20,000 nt of DNA, taken from assembly GCA_001244265.2 (NCBI GenBank), contig CDLV01000009.1:1974246-1994245 (forward strand). Reading direction: 5' to 3'. The notes beneath the pieces are model-generated. The model had not been told where the DNA came from and ran no database searches. It saw only the letters and a program-made list of their open reading frames with translations. How positions within the stretch are numbered: position 1 is the first letter of the stretch; each line of letters opens with the position of its first letter. This DNA is from Microbotryum violaceum. Lineage: Eukaryota. This document shows positions 1 to 18,649 of this stretch, in pieces. A program made the translations under genes and the position numbers.

Positions 1-1035
1 GCTGTCGAAGCTGCCGCATCGCTTGCCCTTGCAGCGTCGGATGGTTGGTGTTCAACTGTGTATGAAGAACCCACGATTGCGCAGTTGCATGCATCAGTGA
101 CTCTGCGTGACCGTTACACCATGCACAGGTCGAAACCGAAGGCGCGACGTACTCAGTTCACCAATCTGAAAAAACGGCACCGAGAACAGGAGAAAGAACC
201 GGCAGCCTTGGGAAGCGCATTGAATGATGGCCTGCAAAAGGCACGCGAACATAGTTAGATCAGATCGAAGTTCCGAGGCCGATTCGAATGAAAATGAGCA
301 CGTCGCATTTCTTACCTTCGTGGCTATGGCGTCGGGACCGACCGAGACTTGCGTTTCCAAATTCTGCAGCGGCACCGGCGACGCGTGATCGAGCACTGGA
401 ATCGCCGAGTTGGATCCGGTTGGAGGGGGCCCTTTGGCCGCCGTGTGATGCACGGGTCCCCGCTTGAACTCGATCGCGATTGACGAGACAACAACTGCTG
501 AGTCTTCAACCCCACGGCCAATTTGCAGGATGGCATCGCCGCGCGTTCGGTATGATAGCCCTTGGACGCTGCGCAACTTTACCCAGTAGCCACTGGTCGT
601 GGATGTGAAGTTGGCTTCGCTGATCGAGGCATAATGGTCGAGCAACTCGCGCGTTACACCTCTCAGGCCGCCAGCGAAAATGGATGTGAATGCATCTCGG
701 ACCTCTTCTTCGGTAATCCGAGGCATGCAGCCATCACTGGTCAAACTCGTCGCCTCAATGACGGCGATCTTGGCTTCGAAGCGCTCGAGCAGCGATGGGT
801 GTAAGTCGAGTAGACTTAAAAATGAGTCGACGATCCTGTCGCCAGGAGAAGAGTAATCGCCCCATCTCAATCCTCCCGAACGTGCGGCACAATCGAACGC
901 AGTTCCAGCGTTGGCCTGCAAGCGCGGAGCGGTTGAGTAATCAGGCGCGTTGCCAGGCGGAGGTGGCTCGAACCAAGTGTGTGGAGTGCATGAAAAGAGG
1001 TGGCGCATAGGTAGATTGAGACTTGTGGCAGGCAT
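1..1035 (-). CDS. Nuclease(PD-(D/E)xK)-kinase family gene, copy A; only the 5' part is in the window. Exons 1035-316, 231-153, 55-<1
   Basis: Near-identical to copy B. ATG at 1035 (MPATSLNLPMRHLF). Intron 315-232 is GTAAGA...CTAAC...TTGCAG, 84 nt with no stop, which explains the read-through 402-aa ORF. Intron 152-56 is GTACGT...CACAG. Exon lengths 720 and 79 match copy B. The motif RGDAILQIG...IAIEFKRG is present. Confidence 0.85.
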
Positions 1036-3791: not shown

Positions 3792-3994
3792 GTGCCCCAC
3801 CGCACCGGGCCTTGTACCATTTCAATAGTATATTGGCACAGACTTTGAGCAATAGTAACATAATGGTCCACTCTACCTTTCGCAATCGGCCCTATAACAC
3901 GAGTTCTATGCCCCTGTTGACCGTTGGGCATGAATCGATCCCGCGAGGATTTGAAACGCATTTGGGATCGATTCGAGATGCATTCGGGATCGCT

Positions 3995-4254
3995 GCGCCG
4001 ATTTCAAATGCATTTAAAATCGGTGCGGCGATTTAGAATGCATTTCAAATCGGTGCGCGCGATCCCAAATGCATTTCAAATCGGTGCGCGCGATCCCAAA
4101 TGCATTTCAAATCGGTGCGCGCGATCCCAAATGCATTTCAAATCGGTGCGCCGATTTCCAATGCGTTTCAAATCGGTGCGCCGATTTCAAATGCATTTCA
4201 AATCGATCCACCGATTTCAAATGCATTTCGAATCGCTCCACCGATTTCAAATCG
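3995..4254. repeat. Minisatellite of 29-31-bp quasi-palindromic units (AAATGCATTTCAAATCGGTGCGC[GCGATCCC|CGATTTC])
   Basis: About 8 directly abutting units centred on ATGCAT with no unique spacers, continuous with the right arm of the long inverted repeat. Confidence 0.95.
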
Positions 4255-7049: not shown

Positions 7050-8210
7050 ACTTGCAAGGCTACTCTCTTCGGCGATCAAGGGCTAGAGAACTGTTTTTGC
7101 GTATTATATTGTCTTCATGCACTGAGAGTTGTCCAGCATGTGAGAGCGGCTACATCTTTAAGCGAAGCACAGCCATTGACATTCTGGTCCCGAGACGGCA
7201 TTGCGTACCCCGTCACACGGTTTACCGGCACAAAACATTGGAGTCGTGTCAAGCAGAACTGAGCAAGGAGATTTGTGAACGAGAGGAAATGTCATTGACA
7301 GAAAATGCGACTCAGAAAAGATGTCAGACGACGAGCGGCGACCATCAATGACAGCCGCGCTGACGACGACACACGGCTCAGTTCGAGCTGACTTGCACTT
7401 GAGAAACAGCCCTTGACATCCGGAGGCAGATGATCGATGGCCCGGTAAAGACGATTACTCAATGAACGAGCGGGCTTAATAGGCGCAGCTTTACAGGTAA
7501 AGAGACTTTGATAATAGCCGGGGCAAAGCGAACACTGGACGGAGGACTCATCCGCGGCGAAGTGGATGGGCTGGCCCTCTAGGTCGTTCCGTCGATGTAG
7601 ACCACGCGGATCAATGATTGCAGCACGCCATTCCTCGAAATCATACGTTGTAGGCGGCAAGTCAGAGCGCAAATGAACATCTGTGAGCACCTCCAGGATG
7701 CCGCGATCTCTGCACTTGAGAACGCTCTTCTCAACCCACTGTGCCTCGTGCCCGAAGACCCTCTCAGAGCAAACCAAGCAGCAGAAAGCTCAAAAATTGG
7801 CATCTGTGAAGTACTGAGTCTATTCGATACGGATCTCAGCTTGGAGCCGGGCGGACGCAGGAGTATAGAGCGAGGACCGCTCAGCCTGCGAAGCTTGCGT
7901 GGTTCGGCGAAGCCGTGTGGCGTGTTGGTCACTGCCCGGGCCCGCGCCTATGAATTCGTCTACAAGATTACAAATTTTGGCAACCCAAAGGCGCAGCCAA
8001 AGTGTACTCGGGGAAATACCTTGATTCTCAGTCAGAATACTGCCGCGTTCACGGACATTCTTCCGATGTCAGTCGAGCAATGAGCCGACAGTGTGTGTGT
8101 ATTGTTTTGCGGCGCTGAAGCGAATTTGACCAAACTAGACAAGTGTCAACCGATGATTGTGAGGCAAGGGAAGGTGAAACGAATGTTGGAGTGGTTGAGC
8201 CAGGTTTGTG
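7050..8210 (+). mobile_element. Degenerate Helitron Rep/helicase N-terminal region (DUF6570-like), truncated before the Rep catalytic motifs
   Basis: ...ARARAYEFVYKITNFGNPKAQPKCTRGNTLILSQNTAAFTDILPMSVEQ*ADSVCVLFCG...QPMIVRQGKVKRMLEWL matches the recalled fungal Helitron pattern Q...GN...PQ...LP...D.I.V.F.G...P..VRR.KV...L.WL. An upstream Cys motif (CTESCPAC..GYIF) and LENALLNP also fit. There is an in-frame stop at 8081-8083. Confidence 0.7.
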
Positions 8211-8539
8211 GATTCAGTCGCGAGCACTTGCCTCCGGAAAGACAGCAGCCGCAGCATTTGATCCGTGAGATCGGCCTCGAGCTCGTGACGTCCGAGACGC
8301 TTGCGACTCAGGGCATGGAGTCCAAGTTGCGATGCTTGTTTTCTGAACATGCGGCAACGGCGTGGAACTTGGGGAACGGTGAATGTAAGCCGTGGTACCT
8401 CTTGTATCTGAATCCGTTGCAGAAACCTGACTCCTTCCCCTTTCTCATCCTCACCCGGCCCGGCCAGCGATCGAAGTCAACATGCTAAACCTAACGGCGA
8501 AGCCGCAGGTGCTCTTCATCCACCACCAGTTAATCATCC

Positions 8540-9260
8540 CCAAGGTGTAAGTATTAATTTACATTTTTGCTTTTGTAGGCTCCAGGATCTGATGGATGGG
8601 CTGACAAGCATGTTTGCAGTCATTGGGAAATGCACAGGCGGCGAACCGCTTGGGAGAACCTTCTTGAACTGCCCGATTACAGTCGATTTTATGCGGATGT
8701 CCGAGCGGGGCTTTTTACCGGTCGCAAGTGCGCCGAAGGATCTCCAACGCCTCTCCCCGTGACTGTCCATGGGCACCCCGAGCGATTTGCACACACCATC
8801 CTCCGTGAAAGTGATCTGTGTGCGCTTGTCTGCACCGTCGAGGCTCGCGCTTGGAGGGACAGGTCCTCCGGCAAATGCAGTGGCACGGGCGCCTAAACTT
8901 TGTGCCCCTCGGGACTCGCGTGCACGGCCAGAGCGATGTGAGTACTTCTTGAATGTACGTGCATATTGCATGTGCCTGATGTACTTTGTTTGGCTGATGT
9001 GCGGCAGATGACATGCCAGACCACGCCGCCGCCGTCCGTCCAACTCAGTCCAAGCGGGTCATCGCCTCCTCTGTCAAGCGCTCGGCAATGTTAATGGACG
9101 CCGAGCTGAATATTGACCTGTCGAGCACCGAAGGTCATGGTAGTGAGTTCAAGCCCGCAAATCGCATCGCTACCTTTTATACCGGCTCACTACTGCCGGT
9201 TTCGGTTTCTTGCGTTTTACAGTCACTGACAACTATCGCAGAAAACATGCGAGCGCGGAA
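8540..9260 (+). pseudogene. Spliced gene remnant of unknown function
   Basis: Intron-like segments GTAAGT...TTGTAG (8547-8578, abnormally short) and GTACGT...GCTGAT...GGCAG (8955-9007) flank an exon-like frame (WENLLELPDYSRFYADVRAGLF...ILRESDLCALVCTVEARAW) that carries stops. Confidence 0.3.
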
Positions 9261-9299
9261 GATAGACTTCCGATAGAAGAGAGGCAGCGACGCCGAGAA

Positions 9300-9577
9300 G
9301 TCAGGACCAGTCCACGAGCGGCACAAAGGCGGACGACGAACAAGATTGTCGTGATTGACGAGACAAGAGCAAGCGTCTTGTTGTAGTCGATCCCCAGTCG
9401 TGGAGCAAAGCCTTGGACGACTAGCTGAGTCTTGTAGCTGATGATGCTGGCCTCGGCGTCTTCCTTTCGAGTAAACACCCCACGATAGCCCAGGGCACGA
9501 GCCCCAGTAGGGGGACTCGAAAGCTTGAACACCTTGTGCAAGCCCATGGAGCTAAGTTCCTTGACCGACGCAGCGTA
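9300..9577 (-). mobile_element. Ty1/copia retrotransposon reverse transcriptase (RVT_2) N-terminal fragment, degenerate
   Basis: AASVKELSSMGLHKVFKLSSPPTGARALGYRGVFTRKEDAEASIISYKTQLVVQGFAPRLGIDYNKTLALVSSITTI matches the copia consensus PPG..AIG.KWVF.RK.D..G.I..YKARLVAQGF.Q..GIDY.ETFAPV. Confidence 0.9.
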
Positions 9578-10299: not shown

Positions 10300-10458
10300 A
10301 TAGTAGAGGAGAGACAGGTCTAGAAGAGTGAGTGAAGATATTACGAGCACTGCCGAGAGAAAGAGAGAGAAGAAGTAAAGAGATCACGAGCATTGCCGAG
10401 AGAGAGAGAGAAGAGAGGAGAGGAGAGAAAGGACGAGAAGAAACAGCGAGAGAGGGAG
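10300..10458. repeat. GA-rich low-complexity tract with a local duplication (ACGAGCA[C/T]TGCCGAGAGA...), in the 3' UTR region of copy B
   Basis: (GA)n-rich sequence with the motif repeated at ~10343 and ~10387. An analogous CT-rich tract follows the stop of copy C (18269-18320). Confidence 0.8.
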
Positions 10459-10460
10459 GT

Positions 10461-13093
10461 TCACGCTCGAAGTTTGAGATAAGATCGTCCCCAGTCGACG
10501 AAGCAAAAGCCCCCATCGTCGGGTCGAACCAATACGTTCCCCTGGCGGATATCGTTGTGAACAATTCCAAGCTCAACGAAAGCCTTCTCGATCTCCCTGC
10601 ACATGGCGAGGACGAAGTGAAAGAACAGGGGTGTCAGCATCACGCTGAGCCGTCGACAACTTGCCGCGGCCCGAAGACTTACTGCCATTGACCAGACCGT
10701 TCATAAAACTCGGAGTAATTCATATGAGTCCCCACATTCTCAAGCACCATAGCGTACCCATTGCCGTTGATACCGCGGTACGTGCCGTGGTATTGTGGCA
10801 GATGTTTTTGGAGCCCGTCGGGAAGGTGGGGAAAGACGTGCTGATAAAACAGCGTCTCCCGGACGACCGAGCCAACATAGTTACATGTCACGAGCTTGAG
10901 AAAGTACCTCGTGTTCGGAGCAGGGTGGCCAACAAGGGGGACCTCGCGATTGGCCGGGGAGGACCAACGTGGGTTGACGCGCACCACGTTCGCAAGATAC
11001 CCGTCGGCAGTACTTCCCGTCCCAACCTGCTTCTCCAGGCGAAGATCCGCCGCGGCCTCGAAGTAACCCAACAGTTCCAGCGGGATCCGATCGTCTTCGA
11101 GCTCGTCCTTAGGGTCTTCCGTCAACCACTGCAAAACGGCATCAGACAAATGGAGGCTCCGGATGAAGTCGGTGGCTGGGGAAGGGTTCGACGACAGAAG
11201 GGACGAAAGGGGCGAGTCGGAACGATCCGAGGAGACGATATCAAAGTCGATTTCGACCAGATTGACGCGGCTCGTGCCCGTGTACGACTGCAAAGAGCAC
11301 AAGAGGACACGTTCGGTGAGCGGAGCCACGAGTGCTGGCACAGGAGCCGCATGGTCAGAATGTGTGACGCACCATCATCGACCAGTGCGCATTCGACAAG
11401 CTCGCCTGGATCACGAAATTGCGATCGTGAGCGATTGTGATCGATTTCGATGAAGGAACCGAGCCGGAAGCCGGCGATGTCGTCGGACTCCGGTCCGTCG
11501 ACGCAGGAGGGGACGAGAAGCAGAGAGCCTCAGGAGTGAGCGCGCCAGAGAGGTCGGACCCGGCCTCTTCGGAGACGGGCGGGGTGACGGGCCGATTCGA
11601 ACCCTTGGCTTGAGTGGGCGGGGGGTCGCCTGCCAGTCGCCTTGAGGAGCGAGTACCGGGGCCAATGGCCGACGTTTTCGGTGCTTTGTTTGCCGGCTCG
11701 TAGGAGGGATCTTCACGGTCCGAGTCCGAGACGGCGCGAGGTCGCGACTGATTCGAGGTGTTCGGGTTGGCGTCGAGCAATTCTTTGACGCGATCTTTCC
11801 CCGGCTCGGGCACCTTCATCACGGCTGTGAACGCCAGAGCAATGAAAGACACGATGAACGACCGCGCCGGTAAGTCAACGCCGAGGGTCTCGGCGGGCTG
11901 GAGCGAGGTGCCTGGATAGCGCTCGACCCATCGCACCAACTCTTGAAGGAGCAGGCTATACTGTCTTCGAACAGCGGGTGGGGTGCTCGCCTCGGTCGTG
12001 GTAGGGGGGGTGGGGGTCGATGAGTGGGGCGTGCCAGGCATTGGTGCCGTCGAGGTGGAAGCTGACGCTGTCGAAGCTGCCGCATCGCTTGCCCTTGCAG
12101 CGTCGGATGGTTGGTGTTCAACTGTGTATGAAGAACCCACGATTGCGCAGTTGCATGCATCAGTGACTCTGCGTGACCGTTACACCATGCACAGGTCGAA
12201 GCCGAAGGCGCGACATACCCAGTTCACCGATCTGAAAAAACGGCACCGAGAACAGGAGAAAGAACCGGCAGGCTTGGGAAGCGCACTGAATGATGGCCTG
12301 CAAAAGGCACGCGAACATAGTTAAATCAGATCGAAGTTCCGAGGCCGATTCGAATAAAAATCGTATTTCTTACCTTCGTGGCTATGGCGTCGGGACCGAC
12401 CGAGACTTGCGTTTCCAAATTCTGCAGCGGCACCGGCGACGCGTGATCAAGCACTGGAATCGCCGAGTTGGTTCCGGTTGGAGGGGGCCCTTTGGCCGCC
12501 GTGTGATGCACGGGTCCCCGCTTGAACTCGATCGCGATTGACGAGACAACAACTGCTGAGTCTTCAACCCCACGGCCAATTTGCAGGATGGCATCGCCGC
12601 GCGTTCGGTATGATAGCCCTTGGACGCTGCGCAACTTTACCCAGTAGCCACTGGTCGAGGATGTGAAGTTGGCTTCGCTGATCGAGGCATAATGGTCGAG
12701 CAACTCGCGCGTTGCACCTCGCAGGCCGCCAGCGAAAATGGAGGTGAATGCATCTCGGACCTCTTCTTTGGTAATCCGAGCCCTGCGGCCAGCCCTGGTC
12801 GAACCCATCGCCTCAATGACGGCGATCTTGGCTTCGAAGAGCTCGAGCAGCGATGGGTGTAAGTCGAGTAGATTAAAAAACGAGTCGATGACCCTCTCGC
12901 CAGGAGAAGAGTGTTTGCCCCATCTCAATCCTCCCAAACGTGCGGCGCAATCGAACGCAGTTCCAGCGTTGGCCTGCAAGCGCGGAGCGGTTGAGTAATC
13001 AGGCGCGTTGCCAGGCGGAGGTGGCTCGAACCAAGTCTGTGGAGTGCATGAAAAGAGGTGGCGCATAGGTAGATTGAGACTTGTGGCAGGCAT
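10461..13093 (-). CDS. Intact 762-aa PD-(D/E)xK nuclease-like + protein-kinase-like fusion protein (CR-effector/Spok-like architecture), copy B. Exons 13093-12374, 12297-12219, 12121-11373, 11287-10683, 10596-10461
   Basis: There are four canonical GT-AG introns (76, 97, 85, 86 nt; donors GTAAGA, GTATGT, GTGCGT, GTAAGT). Exon lengths 720+79+749+605+136 = 2289 nt give an uninterrupted frame. Nuclease motif: GD(12595)...IEFK(12521). Kinase motifs: VGTGST, FLKL, VRE, HNDIRQGN, VDWG. The start codon is inferred (first in-frame ATG, similar position to copy C). Confidence 0.88.
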
Positions 13094-13719
13094 CGTAGCT
13101 GATATTGGACCGTGCTGTTGGGCGCCGCTTTTAGTGCCACCGTGCCACGTGCCCAGGCTACCAAGACCCCTGGGAATCACGGTTGAGTGACGAGCAGGAG
13201 AGGGTAGCAAAGTTCCTGGTCGGCAGGTGGCCAGAGGCTGCCGGCTGCCGGAGGCGGGCGACAGGACCCCCGAAAGCCCGGCCTTGAGGCGCGTAGTGCC
13301 CGACCGGTCAAATTGTGGGCCTCAGATGGGCCAAAATCGCGAAGGCGCGTAGTCGGGGGTGGATAAATCAGGGCGCGCCGGTGCGGGTGGGGTCTAGGGC
13401 CCGTAGGTGCCAGTGGACAAATCGGGGACCCATTTCAGCCACATTCGGCTCGGTACGCCAAAGTTCGCCGACCCTCAAGAACGTGCGGAGCGCGTGGGAA
13501 ACATTCTGGGCTGTACCGAATTAACAGCAAGGGCTCTAATTGTTCAATTTTGCAATTATAGCCTCTTGGCTGGTTGAACGATTTTGTAATCATAGCCTCT
13601 TGGCTGGATGAACGAAAAGTCTGAGCCTTGCGCGCGTCTCTTGCCTCCCCCGCCGCGTTGCGTCGTCTGTGCCACCATCGTCATTATCCTACGTTCTCGC
13701 TTCAGCCAGCTTCGACGAA

Positions 13720-14305
13720 ATGTATCTGGACGATCCGGATATCGAGCTCCTTGACGATGATTTTGAGCGAATGGCACCCCTTTTGGACGTTAGGGTGTCT
13801 GAGCTTCTCACCTTCCGCTTCGACAACCCAGACACGCAAATACAGCTTTCGTGGTCGCTTTCGTGGTCGACAGACGAGCCTCTCGAGTTTGATACTCTTC
13901 TAAGGCCGCTCCGCGCTTGGAGGGACAAGTTCAAGGATCGTGAAGCAATCACTGCGGCACGTAAACAAGGTTACCGGTCTATCGCTATCACCGGGCACCG
14001 GCTGCCTTTCAGTGTCGAAAGGATCTGGCGGCATATAGATTACGCCGAGCGCATGCGTTCGGTCGTTATCAATAGCCAACAGTGGATGAAAAGTTATCTG
14101 GGTGTCGATATCGAAAATCAGCCTCTCATCGTTAAGGCTCTGGAGGTGCTGCCGTCACTGCTCGTTGAGGAGCAATATACCCCCTCAATGATCCTCGGGT
14201 GTAGCGCGTCCTTGCGCACGTTGCTCGATTTCGTCGGTAAGCAGCCACTTTGTTCATTTGTTCGATCGCGTGATTGATTGGGATTGTTTTTCGTGCTTTT
14301 TCTAG
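13720..14305 (+). pseudogene. Hypothetical gene 5' exon (13720-14236) plus intron (14237-14305), apparently truncated; possibly the N-terminus of a TE-associated Ulp1/C48 protease-type protein
   Basis: A 172-codon globular-looking frame (MYLDDPDIELL...GYRSIAITGHRLPFSVERIWRH...QQWMKSY...SLRTLLDFV) ends at a GTAAGC donor, with acceptor TTTTCTAG. The downstream frame stops after ~24 codons. The Ulp1 link is recalled resemblance only; no catalytic His/Asp/Cys is seen. Confidence 0.45.
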
Positions 14306-14309
14306 GGAT

Positions 14310-15311
14310 TAGATTTAGGGTTAGGGCTATCTCCGTATGCCTCCCCAAGACTGGCGGTTTGTGACCAAGTAATGGCTTAGCCGCTAGCATGCTAACATCA
14401 CGACCGCGGGAGGGGTCGGTAAGCAAAGCTTGAATCACTCTGACGTCGTTCCCACCCATGTTCATTGTGGCTTGAGCATTTGCCAGCAACGACCATCTCG
14501 ATGCCCATGTATTAATGTGCTCTGGCATCTGTGTGAGAATTGCGCTTCAGCTCAACATCACCATTCAGTGTGACACAGACGCGACATACTTTGTAAAAAA
14601 TGTCTAGTCCGTTGGTAATCTCGAATATCCGAAGATTTTGAGGAGCTCCCAGTCGTACCTTGCTTGAGAGATATCTGTATAGCGCTCGTTCAATTCGCTG
14701 TATTGTATGTCCATACACCCAGCGAGATCGGTTGGCAGCCGGCTTTGCATATGCTGTATCGCCGGCGTATTGTTTTGCAGCAAGTTCCGTGGCGACCACT
14801 TGACGGGCTCTCAACGCAGAGTCCCGCGCTCGACTTGATAGGGCTGGATCAAAAAGCGCATTTGCGCTGTTAGCGACTGAACAACAGGCACAATGCCGAA
14901 TGTTTCGGTGGATGGGGTGTAGAGCAGCGGGTTGACTATATCTGACACAGTGGTTGAGTGCCGTGGGAGAAATGCCGAGGTCTTGCGCCTTAGACGAGCA
15001 AAGGCTTTGGCAGCGCCATGTTTTTTAGACACATAGATCCGGTCAAAGGAATGCCAGAGATCGATTAGAATCCGCACAGCGGTCTCGTCTGAGGAAGGGA
15101 CTAGTGAAAGGGGATAGTTCGATATACGTACATCAGCTCCAGCCCCGGCGCCAGGACTGGGGCAAGTCCGTAGTAACTGACCTTTGCTTGTTGCAGCCTT
15201 GCCCCAGATAGCTTTGCCAGCTGCTTCATTCTGTCGTCCGTGTTATCGGCGCTTCGTTTCCGAAAGAAGCGTGACAGCAGTTGCATCGTAGGATATGGTA
15301 CGTTGCAGCAT
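14310..15311 (-). pseudogene. Spliced hypothetical gene, disrupted
   Basis: ATG at 15311 (MLQRTISYDATAVTLLSETKRR*), with an in-frame TAA at 15245-15243. Phase-compatible introns 15181-15101 (GTCAGT...GCTGAT...CTAG) and 14589-14529 (GTATGT...CACAG) join the annotated minus-strand ORFs. One frame change near 14850 is unresolved. Confidence 0.5.
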
Positions 15312-15346
15312 GAAGGCAAGGGATGGCCGCGTGCGGCGCGCCTGAT

Positions 15347-15452
15347 TGCGCCAACTCAAGTGCGCCAACTCAAGTGCGCCAACTCAAGTGCGCCAACTCA
15401 AGTGCGCTAACTCAAGTGCGCTAACTCAATTTGGCGCGCGCGAGTTAGCGCA
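15347..15452. repeat. Six tandem 14-bp units TGCGC(C/T)AACTCAAG followed by an inverted partial copy
   Basis: Units start at 15347, 15361, 15375, 15389, 15403 and 15417. GAGTTAGCGCA (15442-15452) is the reverse complement of TGCGCTAACTC. Confidence 0.95.
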
Positions 15453-15589
15453 AGCGCACCCCCCAGCACCGGTACAGCCCCGGGCTTCGGGGGTCCTCCC
15501 ATTGCTGGGGCGTCAGGCCGCCGGCTGCCGGGCCCTCTTCACCTCCCGCCGTCCACTTGGGCCTGATCACCTCCAGCATCTCGCTCTGT

Positions 15590-18268
15590 ATGGCTTCTTC
15601 CAACGAAGCGACGCCAATTGTTTCCAACTCTCGGCCACCAACGCTCACCCGACTCCTCGCTACTTGTGCTCCATCCAGCTGGTTTCTCCCGCCACCGGAC
15701 CATGATGGAGCGTGTCACTCAACTTCTTCGCGCGTTCAAGCCGATGCTGGGACGACCGCCTATGATTGCGTCGCCCGGCTGGGAGGATTGAAATGGGACT
15801 CACCCGCGTCACCTGGCGTCAGGGTTCTCAGCTCGTTCTTCGATATACTCGAGCAACACCCCTCATTGCTGGACCTGTTCTGCGAGGAGCTAGACGCCAT
15901 CAGCAATGCTCCTCGCAGCGAGTTGGGTCGGAGGAGCGAGCACGCCGTCGAAATCTCGTTCGTTTGCCTCTTCGCTAGCGGTCTACGATCTGCAACGGCG
16001 GCGCTGCTCAACCATTATGCCGCGATCACCGAGGCCGTCGGAGCTTCTTCCGCTTCCGCATCGACCTCCGCGACGAGACCCCGCTATTCGGTTCGACTGG
16101 GCGAACCTGAACGTGCTCTCCGCACGCAGGGCGATGCTGTCGTCTACATTCAACGCGGGGCTGGCAACGTCGTTTCAAGTATCTCGATCGAATACAAGCG
16201 GGACAACGTACATCATAGCTTGGCCAAGGTACGCCAGGAGGGCCTCTCGCATATTCCCATACTCGACCACGGGGCCCCAGTGCCACTTCAAAAACTAGAG
16301 GAAGAAGAGTCGAAGGGTGCAGATGCTGTGGCGACCAAGGTGAGGCATGCATCTTGCAGGCTTGGACATACGCTTTCTCGATCCGGCCTCGAAAATATCT
16401 GAGTTTACTCATTTCATATTTTTCATGCTCGTGAAGGCCATCATCCAATGCGTCTCTAGCAAGAGTCGATTCTTTTTGCTGCTGTCGGTTCCGTTCTTCC
16501 AAATTGGTGAACTGGGTACGTCATAGATTTGAACTCACCGAAACCTGTCGAAACTTTCCGGGCCCCACTGACGCATGCGATCATACGGTCCTGCTTTGGC
16601 CATTCGCCCGCCCATAGTCCAGCACCAGTCGACGCATGCTGCAACGGCAAGCGATCCCGTAGCGTCGACCTCAGCGGCGTCTGCCTCAATCTCGGCTGCG
16701 ACCGCGTACTCACCGGCACCGCCCCTCAAGGCCAGGTACAGCCTGGTTCTACAAGAACTGGCCCGATGGGTAGAGCCCTCTCCGACGACCATGAACCCAG
16801 ACGCGGCCGAAACACTTGGCGCTGATCTTCCACGACGGTCACTCATCGTGTCGTTTATCGCCCTGGCCTTCACAGCCGTTATCGAGGTCCCTAAGCCGGA
16901 CCAAGCCGTCATTGATACACTGCTCAATCCTCAATTTCAACCTCCGAATCTGCCTCGTCGTCGCTCCGATCCGGACTTGGACCCTAACTATGAACCCTCC
17001 CGCGGGTCCAAAAAGCCTCGAAGACTTCGATCGAAGCCACCGGTGCTCGTCGTTCGGGGCGACTGGTAGGCCAACCACCGCGAGCTCAAACCAAGGACTC
17101 GAATCGACCGGTCACCCCGCCCATCTCCGTAGGGTTGCAAAGTGATCCCTCATCCGACCCGTTGACGCCTGTGACTCGCATCTTCTCGTCCCCTCCTGCA
17201 TCGACGGATTGGAGTCCTGCGACCTCGCCGCTCTCCGGCTCGGGCCTCCCGTCGAAATCGATCACCATAGTTCAAGATCGTGGGTTCGTGATCAAGGCCA
17301 GCTTGTCGAGCGCGTACTGGTCTACGATGGTGCGTCACGCGCTCTACCATGCTGCTCCCGTCCTAGCCCTTGTAGCCCAGCTCACAGAAAGGATTGTTTA
17401 CTTCCTGCTCTTGTGCAGTCGTACACGGGCACAAGCCGCGTGGAATTGGTCGAGATCGGGTTTGATATCGTCTCTTCGGTTCCTTCCGACTCGCCCCTTG
17501 CGTCCCGTCTGCCGTCAAAGCCTTCCCCAGCCAGCGATTTTATTCGGGGCCTCCATCTGTCCGATGTGGTTTTGCGATGGCTGTCCGAAAACCCCGGGAA
17601 GAGCTCAAGGACGATCGAATCCCCCTCGAACTCTTGGATCGGTTCGAGCCCACTGCGGATCTTCGTCTGGAGAAGGAGGTCGGGTCGGGAAGTACTGCCG
17701 GAGGGTGGCTTGCGAAGGTGGTGCAAGTCAACCGACCTTTGTGCTCATCGGCCAAAGCCGAGGCACCCCTTGTTGATCACCCTGCTCCGAATACGACGTA
17801 CTTTCTCAAGCTCGTGACGTGTAGATACGTCGGCTCCGTCATCCGCGAGACGCTGTTTTACCAGCACGTCTTGCCCCACCTCCCCGAGCATCTTCGAAAA
17901 CATATCCCGCAGTATCACGGCACATATCGAAGGACGAATGGCAACGGATACGCCATGGTGCTCGAGAATGTGGGCAAAACGATGAACGAGCTCGACTTCT
18001 ACGGATCGCCGGGCGAATTGTGGTAAGTTCCTGCAGGGCGGCGCACTGATCCAGCCATGTGCAAGCCGGTCAAGAGGCCGCGCGGATTCCTGACCCTCTG
18101 ATTCTTTTTTCTTTTTTCTACGGGAGGTGCAGGGAGATCGAGGCGGCTTTCAGGGAACTCGGCATCGTCCACAATGATGTCAGGGCCGGCAACATACTGG
18201 TTCGACCCAACAATGGCCCTCTTTGCTTCGTTGATTGGGGACGATCGTATCTCAAACTCCGAGTATGA
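15590..18268 (+). CDS. Diverged paralogue of the nuclease-kinase gene, copy C. Exons 15590-16339, 16437-16515, 16618-17329, 17419-18022, 18133-18268; two 1-bp frameshifts (pseudogene or sequencing error)
   Basis: The four intron positions and phases match copy B (donors GTGAGG, GTACGT, GTGCGT, GTAAGT). Motifs QGDAVVYI...ISIEYKRD, VGSGST, FLKL, HNDVRAGN and VDWG are intact. No premature stops were noticed once one base is restored in the A-run 17010-17014 and in the C/G-run 17592-17598. Confidence 0.85.
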
Positions 18269-18410
18269 ATCTCTTCTCTCCTTCTCCTTCTGAGGTCTCT
18301 GTTTTTCTCTCTCTTCTATGCTTGTTTTATATTTTGTACGCACTTTCCCTCAGGTTCATCTGCAATGCGTAACGCTCGTCATCTCGTTCATCTCGTCCGC
18401 GTCGTAGTTG

Positions 18411-18649
18411 TGGCTGGATTCAGTGCGCCGCCCTTTAGGAACTTCCCACAACGGGCCGGGCGTTCCGTAGAAGTCGCTGAGCTCGTTCATCATTGTTCCC
18501 AAATCTTCAGATACCATGACATATCCGTTGCCATTGGTCCTTCGGTGCGTGCTGTGATATTGCGGCAGATGTTTGCGAAGATGGTCGGGAAGGTGGGGGA
18601 AGACGTGCTGGTAAAACAGCGTCTCGCGCGCAAATGACCGGGCCAACGT
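18411..18649 (-). pseudogene. Copy D: inverted fragment of the kinase exon and start of intron 4 of the same family
   Basis: The reverse complement aligns to 17827-18058 (RETLFYQHVFPHLPDHLRKHLPQYHSTHRRTNGNGYVMV...DFYGTPGPLW). The splice donor is mutated GTAAGT>GGAAGT. Confidence 0.9.

Follow-up and report, generated by a model that had tools for sequence, protein, structure and literature searches.

Gene copies in the window

The stretch of DNA analysed here, hereafter the window, comprises 20,000 nucleotides (nt) of Microbotryum violaceum (contig CDLV01000009.1, positions 1,974,246-1,994,245), and all coordinates below are relative to it. The stop-to-stop list of its open reading frames (ORFs), together with a direct reading of both strands, revealed the same type of gene four times: an intact copy (B), a copy that is out of frame in the assembly (C), a copy cut by the window start (A) and a fragment. 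The encoded protein consists of an orphan N-terminal domain, disordered linkers and a C-terminal kinase-like module, and the family to which it belongs, all of whose named matches come from Microbotryum, may be shaped by genetic conflict. The parts of the copies are as follows.

10461..13093, minus strand: copy B, the intact gene, encoding 762 amino acids (aa); stop codon at 10463-10461; joined exons free of stops
13093-12374, 12297-12219, 12121-11373, 11287-10683 and 10596-10461, minus strand: the exons of copy B
12374..13093, minus strand: exon 1 of copy B, residues 1-240, the bulk of the orphan N-terminal domain
12734..12823, minus strand: hypervariable patch of copy B, residues 91-120, delimited by the clustering of variable columns in near-identical paralogues
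12595-12593, 12529-12527 and 12523-12521, minus strand: proposed D167, E189 and K191 of copy B
10464..11110, minus strand: kinase-like module of copy B, residues about 576-762, intron 4 included, supported by the Pfam APH match on exon 5 and by residue conservation
10553-10551 and 10496-10494, minus strand: catalytic D of HND and D of DWG in exon 5 of copy B
15590..18268, plus strand: copy C, out of frame twice in this assembly
15590-16339, 16437-16515, 16618-17329, 17419-18022 and 18133-18268, plus strand: the exons of copy C
1..1035, minus strand: copy A, truncated at the window start, with its exon 1 at 316-1035
232-315, 153-231, 56-152 and 1-55, minus strand: intron 1 (84 nt, in frame), exon 2, intron 2 and the start of exon 3 of copy A
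18431..18637, minus strand: fragment of a fourth copy (kinase N-lobe), matching residues 657-724 of the homologue P0001 and lying tail to tail with copy C

The initial annotation, made from the sequence alone, had spliced copy B by hand into a 762-aa protein, and this product was reproduced with five exons, four introns of 76, 97, 85 and 86 nt, all bounded by GT..AG, and no internal stop. The introns of copy C are of 97, 102, 89 and 110 nt, and copies B and C are arranged head to head. Copy A is 94.5% identical to copy B across 1243 aligned bases, the likeness stopping about 200 bp upstream of the ATG; its coordinates past exon 1 were inferred from alignment offsets to copy B. The earlier count of three copies and one fragment, clustered in DNA rich in transposable elements (TEs), was likewise borne out, the copies sharing the window with a reverse transcriptase (RT) fragment (RVT_2) and a dispersed repeat ORF. 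Intron 1 of copy A contains no stop and, being in frame, can be read through; the annotation of P0002, one of the family homologues compared here under P-numbered names, keeps the corresponding 28 residues.

Compared with the intact homologue P0009, copy C changes frame near 17000 and near 17590 (tblastn), and each change amounts to a single C missing from a run of C.

16998..17001, plus strand: first single-C deletion, in a C-run of exon 3, seen as a frame change in tblastn
17591..17595, plus strand: second single-C deletion, in a C-run of exon 4

Contigs of four public sequencing runs (X1, X15, X16 and X18) bear on these sites. The extra C is carried at the first by X1 (425.2/425.2), X15 (18/18) and X18 (8.56/16), and at the second by X1 (427.5/427.5) and X15 (21.8/21.8), with X16 (0/407.2) matching the window. 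Since the X1 and X15 contigs hold the extra C at both sites, copy C is intact in some samples, and its state in this assembly reflects either two homopolymer miscalls or a genuine polymorphic pseudogene.

Low-complexity DNA adjoins both copies. A 14-nt unit repeated 5.9 times with 98% match occupies 15347-15429, about 160 bp upstream of the copy C ATG, and CT-rich tracts follow the stop codons of copies B (10300-10460) and C (18269-18330). X1 also holds a variant with a 76-nt deletion at 18248>18325.

Transcription and splicing

Contigs that skip precisely the predicted introns were found in X16 and X18 only, and none in X1 or X15; no run is recorded as RNA, and that status is a guess for X16 and X18. 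The joints of copy C lie at 16336>16434 for intron 1 (two contigs), 16514>16617 for intron 2 and 18021>18132 for intron 4 (both X16 and X18), and record 29 of X18 is split into 16987-17328 and 17418-17576 around intron 3. In copy B, X16 joins 12296>12373 across intron 1 and, in a contig from a diverged relative, 10595>10685 across intron 4; none of the contig rows listed spans intron 2 or intron 3 with a joint. The four-intron structure proposed earlier was thus recovered in full for copy C and for introns 1 and 4 of copy B, the latter through the relative, leaving introns 2 and 3 of copy B to the prediction. Because of these intron-skipping joints we regard the family as transcribed and spliced, a statement that stands on runs guessed to be RNA.

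Record 30 of X18 passes through the copy C stop codon to 18282 without a further joint, which argues that the protein truly ends there. An additional 3' exon lengthening the kinase was considered and rejected, given this RNA-type contig across the stop and the loss of B/C similarity about 13 nt past the stop codon.

The C-terminal kinase-like module

The kinase-like domain that the initial annotation placed at the C-terminus was confirmed. Exon 5 of copy B alone (44 aa) matches Pfam APH with E 1.7e-6 and 28.4 bits against a cut-off of 23.2, aligning with profile positions 168-199 of 239, and the weaker matches to RIO1, choline-kinase, ABC1 and Pkinase fall on the same 44 aa; APH was matched in 13 of 20 family members. 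Residue conservation was counted in 40 family sequences, each count being taken over those that cover the position. The catalytic D, the N and DWG are present in all 31, the putative ATP-anchoring Lys in 31 of 32, the alpha-C Glu in 32 of 32 and the glycine-loop G in 31 of 33; GxGxxxG-like, FLK and RET strings are conserved at the right spacing, in an N-lobe part that no profile aligns. PDB sequence and profile searches yielded weak catalytic-loop matches to LegK4 and CK2 and nothing else, and PADLOC, NCBIfam and PHROGs gave weak kinase matches alone.

Its sequence places the C-terminal module with kinases of the APH/RIO/Kdo, or eukaryotic-like kinase (ELK), type, as a kinase-like catalytic core reduced to a minimum. 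It shares with the APH, RIO, Kdo and choline-kinase phosphotransferases the HxD(x4)N and metal-binding D-x-G elements at APH positions 168-199, preceded by a putative G-loop, Lys and Glu, and departs from them in that profiles score the catalytic-loop stretch only, leaving the N-lobe unmatched, and in that APH positions 200-239 are missing. The ORF stops 10 residues past DWG, so the C-lobe is not complete, and the helices that follow DWG in APH-type and protein kinases are absent; the core must therefore be regarded as truncated. FunK1 (PF17667) is a lineage-specific expanded fungal kinase family of basidiomycetes. The present family is likewise a lineage-specific expanded kinase family in a basidiomycete; unlike FunK1, it gave no PF17667 match at E<=1 in 20 members.

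Residues 319-385 (about 11787-11965 in the window, minus strand) form the best-conserved stretch between copies B and C, with dN/dS (omega) of 0.16, and hold two predicted helices; the stretch is flanked by disordered linkers. They may complete the truncated kinase or may belong to the N-terminal domain; a complex prediction of residues 315-390 with 560-763, run without supplied alignments, scored 0.19 against a mark of 0.34 and gives no evidence either way. The helix at about residues 350-368 is very hydrophobic (Kyte-Doolittle mean 1.79 over 19 aa). A transmembrane helix at this place was considered and rejected, as the M. intermedium members hold Asp or His inside it and there is no signal peptide.

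The N-terminal domain and the nuclease question

The N-terminal domain matched no family at E<=1 in Pfam, PADLOC, NCBIfam or PHROGs, and the N-terminal part had no sequence or profile match in the PDB. A restriction-endonuclease (REase) fold had been proposed for it on account of a GD-x(19-21)-E[FY]K motif followed by a helix/strand unit. The motif itself is there, as GD-x21-EFK in copies A and B and GD-x18-EYK in copy C, the spacer being 18-21 residues instead of the range given; the helix/strand string quoted earlier is that of copy A, from which copy B differs by one residue. PD-(D/E)xK sites usually have the D opening one strand and the ExK closing the next. The AlphaFold model of the domain predicts strands at 144-150 and 154-165 (blocks of pLDDT 63-77), with D opening one strand and E-x-K closing the next.

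Conservation of these residues across homologues, the lack of which the initial annotation had named as a ground for refutation, is incomplete, and this speaks in part against them. D is found in 30 of 34 family sequences (N or S in the other 4), E or D in 33 and K in 29 (Q, E or T in the remaining 5). P0002 and P0006/P0038, otherwise full length, have lost K, while P0004 and P0017/P0039 have lost D. The putative catalytic residues of both domains are, as had been noted, common to copies B and C, D/E/K and HND/DWG being kept in each. Across eleven lineage representatives 219 columns are invariant, and D167, E189 and K191 are not among them; residues 212-265, on the other hand, are dense in invariant columns, including D216, E227, D235, K240 and E265. 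The D...ExK motif alone is weak evidence, because the loose pattern [GP]D-x10-30-[DE]xK arises in 131 of 2000 shuffles (6.6%) of the 270-aa N-terminus.

No profile, sequence or fold search ties the domain to any nuclease, and the proposed fold is unsupported by the profile, PDB and hhalign searches. Alignment of profiles with hhalign gave a probability of 0.4% against the first 300 aa of E. coli HsdR and 0.2% against Mrr, with a query Neff of only 1.7, and Foldseek with the full-length AlphaFold model (mean pLDDT 37) returned noise in which not even kinases were retrieved. These negatives are themselves weak, because the alignment is shallow and the domain model is poor past residue 165. We consider a nuclease fold doubtful, though by no means negligible as a prospect. 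Judged by its sequence, the N-terminal module is an alpha/beta orphan in which residues 212-265 are strongly conserved and a separate patch is hypervariable.

The order of a proposed nuclease and a kinase had also suggested a secreted effector of the Crinkler/RHS (CR) type carrying both as toxin modules. REase plus kinase is a common C-terminal architecture of CR effectors in the available excerpts of their published description (PMC5289972), which also contain the idea of a kinase regulating the nuclease. One cluster annotated Crinkler + Pkinase appeared at rank 17 (score 0.92) among the language-model neighbours of the protein. The idea nevertheless fails on its defining features: Pfam showed no Crinkler or Ubl header at E<=1 in 20 members, and the N-terminus is not signal-peptide-like, as it lacks a hydrophobic stretch: the highest Kyte-Doolittle mean of any 12 aa within its first 50 is 0.39. 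The nuclease is, moreover, putative and the REase fold unconfirmed, and we give this explanation almost no credence.

Distribution, copy number and selection

A phmmer search of exon 1 against 1.84 billion representatives gave nine hits, of which eight are family members and one is a spurious repeat protein, and both searches with the kinase part gave the same 14 Microbotryum proteins. Every named family match comes from Microbotryum, in agreement with the basidiomycete origin proposed from the letters alone. The loci are distributed as follows.

M. silenes-dioicae: about 24 loci, most full length; a single 321-kb contig carries seven
M. saponariae: at least 11 loci
M. lychnidis-dioicae (older assembly): 6 annotated loci
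M. intermedium: 2 loci

In M. silenes-dioicae at least 16 loci are full length and more than 10 contigs carry copies. The gene models P0005, P0011 with P0015, P0013, P0014, P0016-P0020, P0022, P0039 and P0040 are truncated or split, and P0004 is fused to a copia gag-like tail. These data bear on the explanation of the family as an ordinary cellular signalling or metabolite kinase which was incidentally duplicated. The kinase motifs are complete up to DWG and the gene is transcribed and spliced, as such a kinase would be. An ordinary kinase would sit poorly with named matches confined to one genus, with a roughly ten-fold range of copy number between sister species, with so many broken members and with a truncated C-lobe, and we regard it as very unlikely.

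The family falls into B-type and C-type subfamilies, both represented in the window, and M. intermedium is equidistant from the two. For copies B and C, dN/dS comes to 0.31 over the whole protein, 0.29 for the N-terminal domain and 0.285 for the kinase; both modules have thus been kept by selection. The synonymous divergence (dS) of the same pair drops from 1.4-2.3 in the 5' half to 0.5-0.76 in the 3' half. P0003 is of the C type save for residues 681-720, which are 95% B-type and 57% C-type; both patterns indicate that segments are exchanged between paralogues.

Variation among the closest paralogues is concentrated in the N-terminal patch. In two sets of paralogues at least 93% identical (range 93-99%), 15 of 69 and 13 of 75 variable columns fall in residues 91-120, a clustering with binomial p of 6e-8 and 7e-6 in the two subfamilies, and the disordered linkers hold 0-3 variable columns per 30. 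Exon 1 of copies A and B differs by 23 nonsynonymous and 5 synonymous changes, the patch alone by 9 and 1. Diversifying selection on residues 91-120 is suggested by these sequence comparisons, not demonstrated.

The same data allow us to weigh the possibility that the gene is a passive passenger without a role for the fungus, copied along with TEs or segmental duplications and with most copies decaying. A copia RT fragment, a weak DUF6570 match and the dispersed repeat ORF lie beside the copies; many models are truncated or split, P0004 has acquired its gag-like tail and copy C is frame-shifted in the assembly; and the M. silenes-dioicae copies are scattered over their many contigs, all of which speaks for a passenger. 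Decay is harder to reconcile with the purifying selection (omega about 0.3) that old paralogues show in both modules, with the number of full-length M. silenes-dioicae loci and with the invariant kinase residues. Pfam found no transposase, integrase or RT domain within the gene in 20 members, the A/B duplication does not stop at a TE end, and the repeat ORF next to the copies has no specific tie to them. On balance a mere passenger seems to us unlikely.

Comparison with known killer systems

The most specific version of a genetic-conflict reading is that of a Spok-like single-gene toxin/antidote, in which an N-terminal PD-(D/E)xK nuclease would kill, the C-terminal kinase would neutralise the killing in carriers, and the copies would be meiotic drivers or post-segregational killers. 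The resemblance to Spok (SPOK2/3/4 of Podospora and other Ascomycota) is one of architecture, by analogy. In the excerpts available of the Spok description (PMC6660238), SPOK3 is a single protein of similar length with the same order of parts: its N-part is folded, its linkers are unstructured, and the kinase at its C-terminus is atypical, being nearer to eukaryotic-like kinases than to typical protein kinases. A D...ExK-type motif precedes the kinase in both, and clustered paralogues are found beside TEs in the window as they are for Spok. The canonical-looking [G]D...hhhE[FY]K would lie on two adjacent strands in the predicted model, and D, E and K are kept in 29-31 of the 34 sequences. The one direct backing comes from language-model neighbours: those of the whole protein include SPOK2_N clusters (score 0.95, 200 shared features), and of the 30 hits for residues 1-275 none but SPOK2_N (0.89, 178 features) belongs to a named family. 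The tool itself describes such scores as leads only, and they are not a test. A hypervariable N-terminal patch would also suit killing and resistance that are specific to each paralogue.

Against this stand first the nuclease searches, all of them negative, the loss of K or D in full-length lineages, the invariance of residues 212-265 in place of D167/E189/K191, and the frequency of the loose motif among shuffled sequences. The Spok cysteine cluster, given as C-x3-C-x13-C-x5-H-x7-H before the kinase in the same excerpts, is also missing: the C-x3-C cluster is absent and there are seven Cys in the 762 aa. Its absence and that of a signal peptide had both been noted earlier and held on checking. 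Spok has an HsdR-like nuclease domain with a QxxxY motif; in the present family no QxxxY is conserved across the subfamilies, the sole instance preceding the D...ExK motif in B-type copies only. Neither AlphaFold model of the family protein predicts an N-terminal coiled coil. Further differences from Spok are the end of the family kinase 10 residues past DWG, a basidiomycete as host and far more numerous copies per genome, an array of seven near-identical copies on one contig exceeding the four Spok genes named in the available excerpts (Spok1-4). The searches run here detected no sequence homology to Spok, and the Pfam scan returned no SPOK2_N match from a library that may lack PF27653. Taken as a whole, a Spok-like toxin/antidote appears rather improbable.

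The wtf genes of Schizosaccharomyces pombe encode membrane proteins and have been linked to gene conversion and to TEs and long terminal repeats (LTRs). The present family resembles these poison-antidote genes in its dynamics only: both are multicopy and rapidly evolving, with intact and broken members. The proteins themselves are unrelated, and no comparison of mechanism can be drawn.

A family possibly under genetic conflict

Gene structure, splicing, kinase motifs, restriction to Microbotryum among the named matches, copy-number dynamics and the pattern of selection are observed features of the family. The reading that we prefer, tentatively and at a little short of an even chance, is that of a Microbotryum-restricted, intracellular two-module protein family which evolves by birth and death under genetic conflict, the N-terminal domain being an effector or recognition part and the kinase its controller. 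It draws on the copy number of 2 to about 24, the near-identical arrays, the broken copies, the exchange between paralogues and the TE-rich surroundings, and equally on the restriction to one genus, the fast-changing surface on an otherwise constrained protein and the invariant catalytic residues. The specificity of the N-terminal domain would be tuned by the patch at residues 91-120, and the kinase would control the activity of that domain by phosphorylating the protein itself, its target or a small molecule. The conflict could be one of self/non-self recognition, of defence or of selfish elements.

Several points weigh against this reading. Amplification beside TEs is equally expected of a passive passenger. 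The B/C synonymous divergence is saturated in the 5' half, so that the omega values there are rough; the excess of nonsynonymous changes between copies A and B is not significant (Fisher p 0.57, with small counts), the omega of the patch between copies B and C is 0.83, and relaxed constraint in a loop is a possible source of its variability. The conservation counts are inflated by many near-identical paralogues. A kinase that lacks everything beyond the tenth residue after DWG may be unable to fold or act alone, and both AlphaFold models are poor, with a mean pLDDT of 37 for the full length and 54 for the domain model. That X16 and X18 are RNA is a guess of the tool. The enzymatic activity of either module, the division of labour between them and the role in conflict are what we infer.

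From this point of view a further, bolder step may be considered, namely that the family is a basidiomycete counterpart of the poison-antidote killers, in which the N-terminal domain, through D...ExK or residues 212-265, would damage cells without a matching copy, the kinase would protect carriers and the patch would decide against which copy each one protects, and in which copies that are hemizygous or tied to one mating-type chromosome could contribute to haplo-lethal and mating-type-bias phenotypes. We hold this to be very improbable. Such 'haplo-lethal' and mating-type-bias phenotypes of Microbotryum have been known for long and are, in the excerpts available of a published study (PMC7898863), currently ascribed to sheltered recessive lethals. 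If the poison-antidote reading were true, Spok-type single-gene killers would not be limited to ascomycetes, and what passes for 'sheltered load' on the mating-type chromosomes of Microbotryum could in part be active drive and not decay. If the more cautious reading of genetic conflict is true, the family would represent a genus-specific set of genes with fast turnover in fungi that serve as a model for sex-chromosome-like evolution, selfing and host specialisation, and its unusual minimal kinase core would offer itself for structural study. No description of the family was found in the literature; the names MVLG_07165, MVLG_06380 and MVLG_06247 do not occur in the main text that describes the M. 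lychnidis-dioicae genome; the supplementary tables of that paper may list the genes or their expression.

Repeat surroundings and other features

Two features of the repeat-rich DNA around the copies lie outside the family.

9233..9577, minus strand: fragment of a copia-type reverse transcriptase (Pfam RVT_2, E 9e-10)
13681..14277, plus strand: dispersed repeat ORF between copies B and C, with nine matches of 114-331 aa on different M. silenes-dioicae contigs

The summed X1 contig depth over the repeat ORF is several-fold that over copy B, summed depth not being a measure of copy number. This ORF was considered as a partner gene and rejected, since it is a dispersed repeat without a specific link to the family. 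DUF6570 is a domain associated with Helitron-like proteins, and the stretch at 8084-8488 (plus strand), which matches it weakly (E 0.003), may be a Helitron remnant.

The DNA between copies B and C shows further peculiarities. X16 contigs skip 14528>14590 (61 nt) and 15100>15182 (81 nt), and the CT..AC ends of these skips point to a spliced minus-strand transcript within 14100-15300; the summed X16 contig depth of this region is high, which is not an expression measure, and its three minus-strand ORFs match no Pfam family. At 14689-14726, in the repeat between the two copies, X1, X15 and X16 have contigs that pass from one strand to the other, which suggests a palindrome or a variable inverted junction.

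No tRNA genes were found in the window. Towards its start, an inverted repeat pair at 1964-2149 and 3800-3992, 91-97% identical, encloses about 1.65 kb with an acidic low-complexity ORF and is followed by a 30-bp tandem array of 8.7 copies at 3989-4252; the structure looks like the remnant of a non-autonomous terminal inverted repeat (TIR) element.

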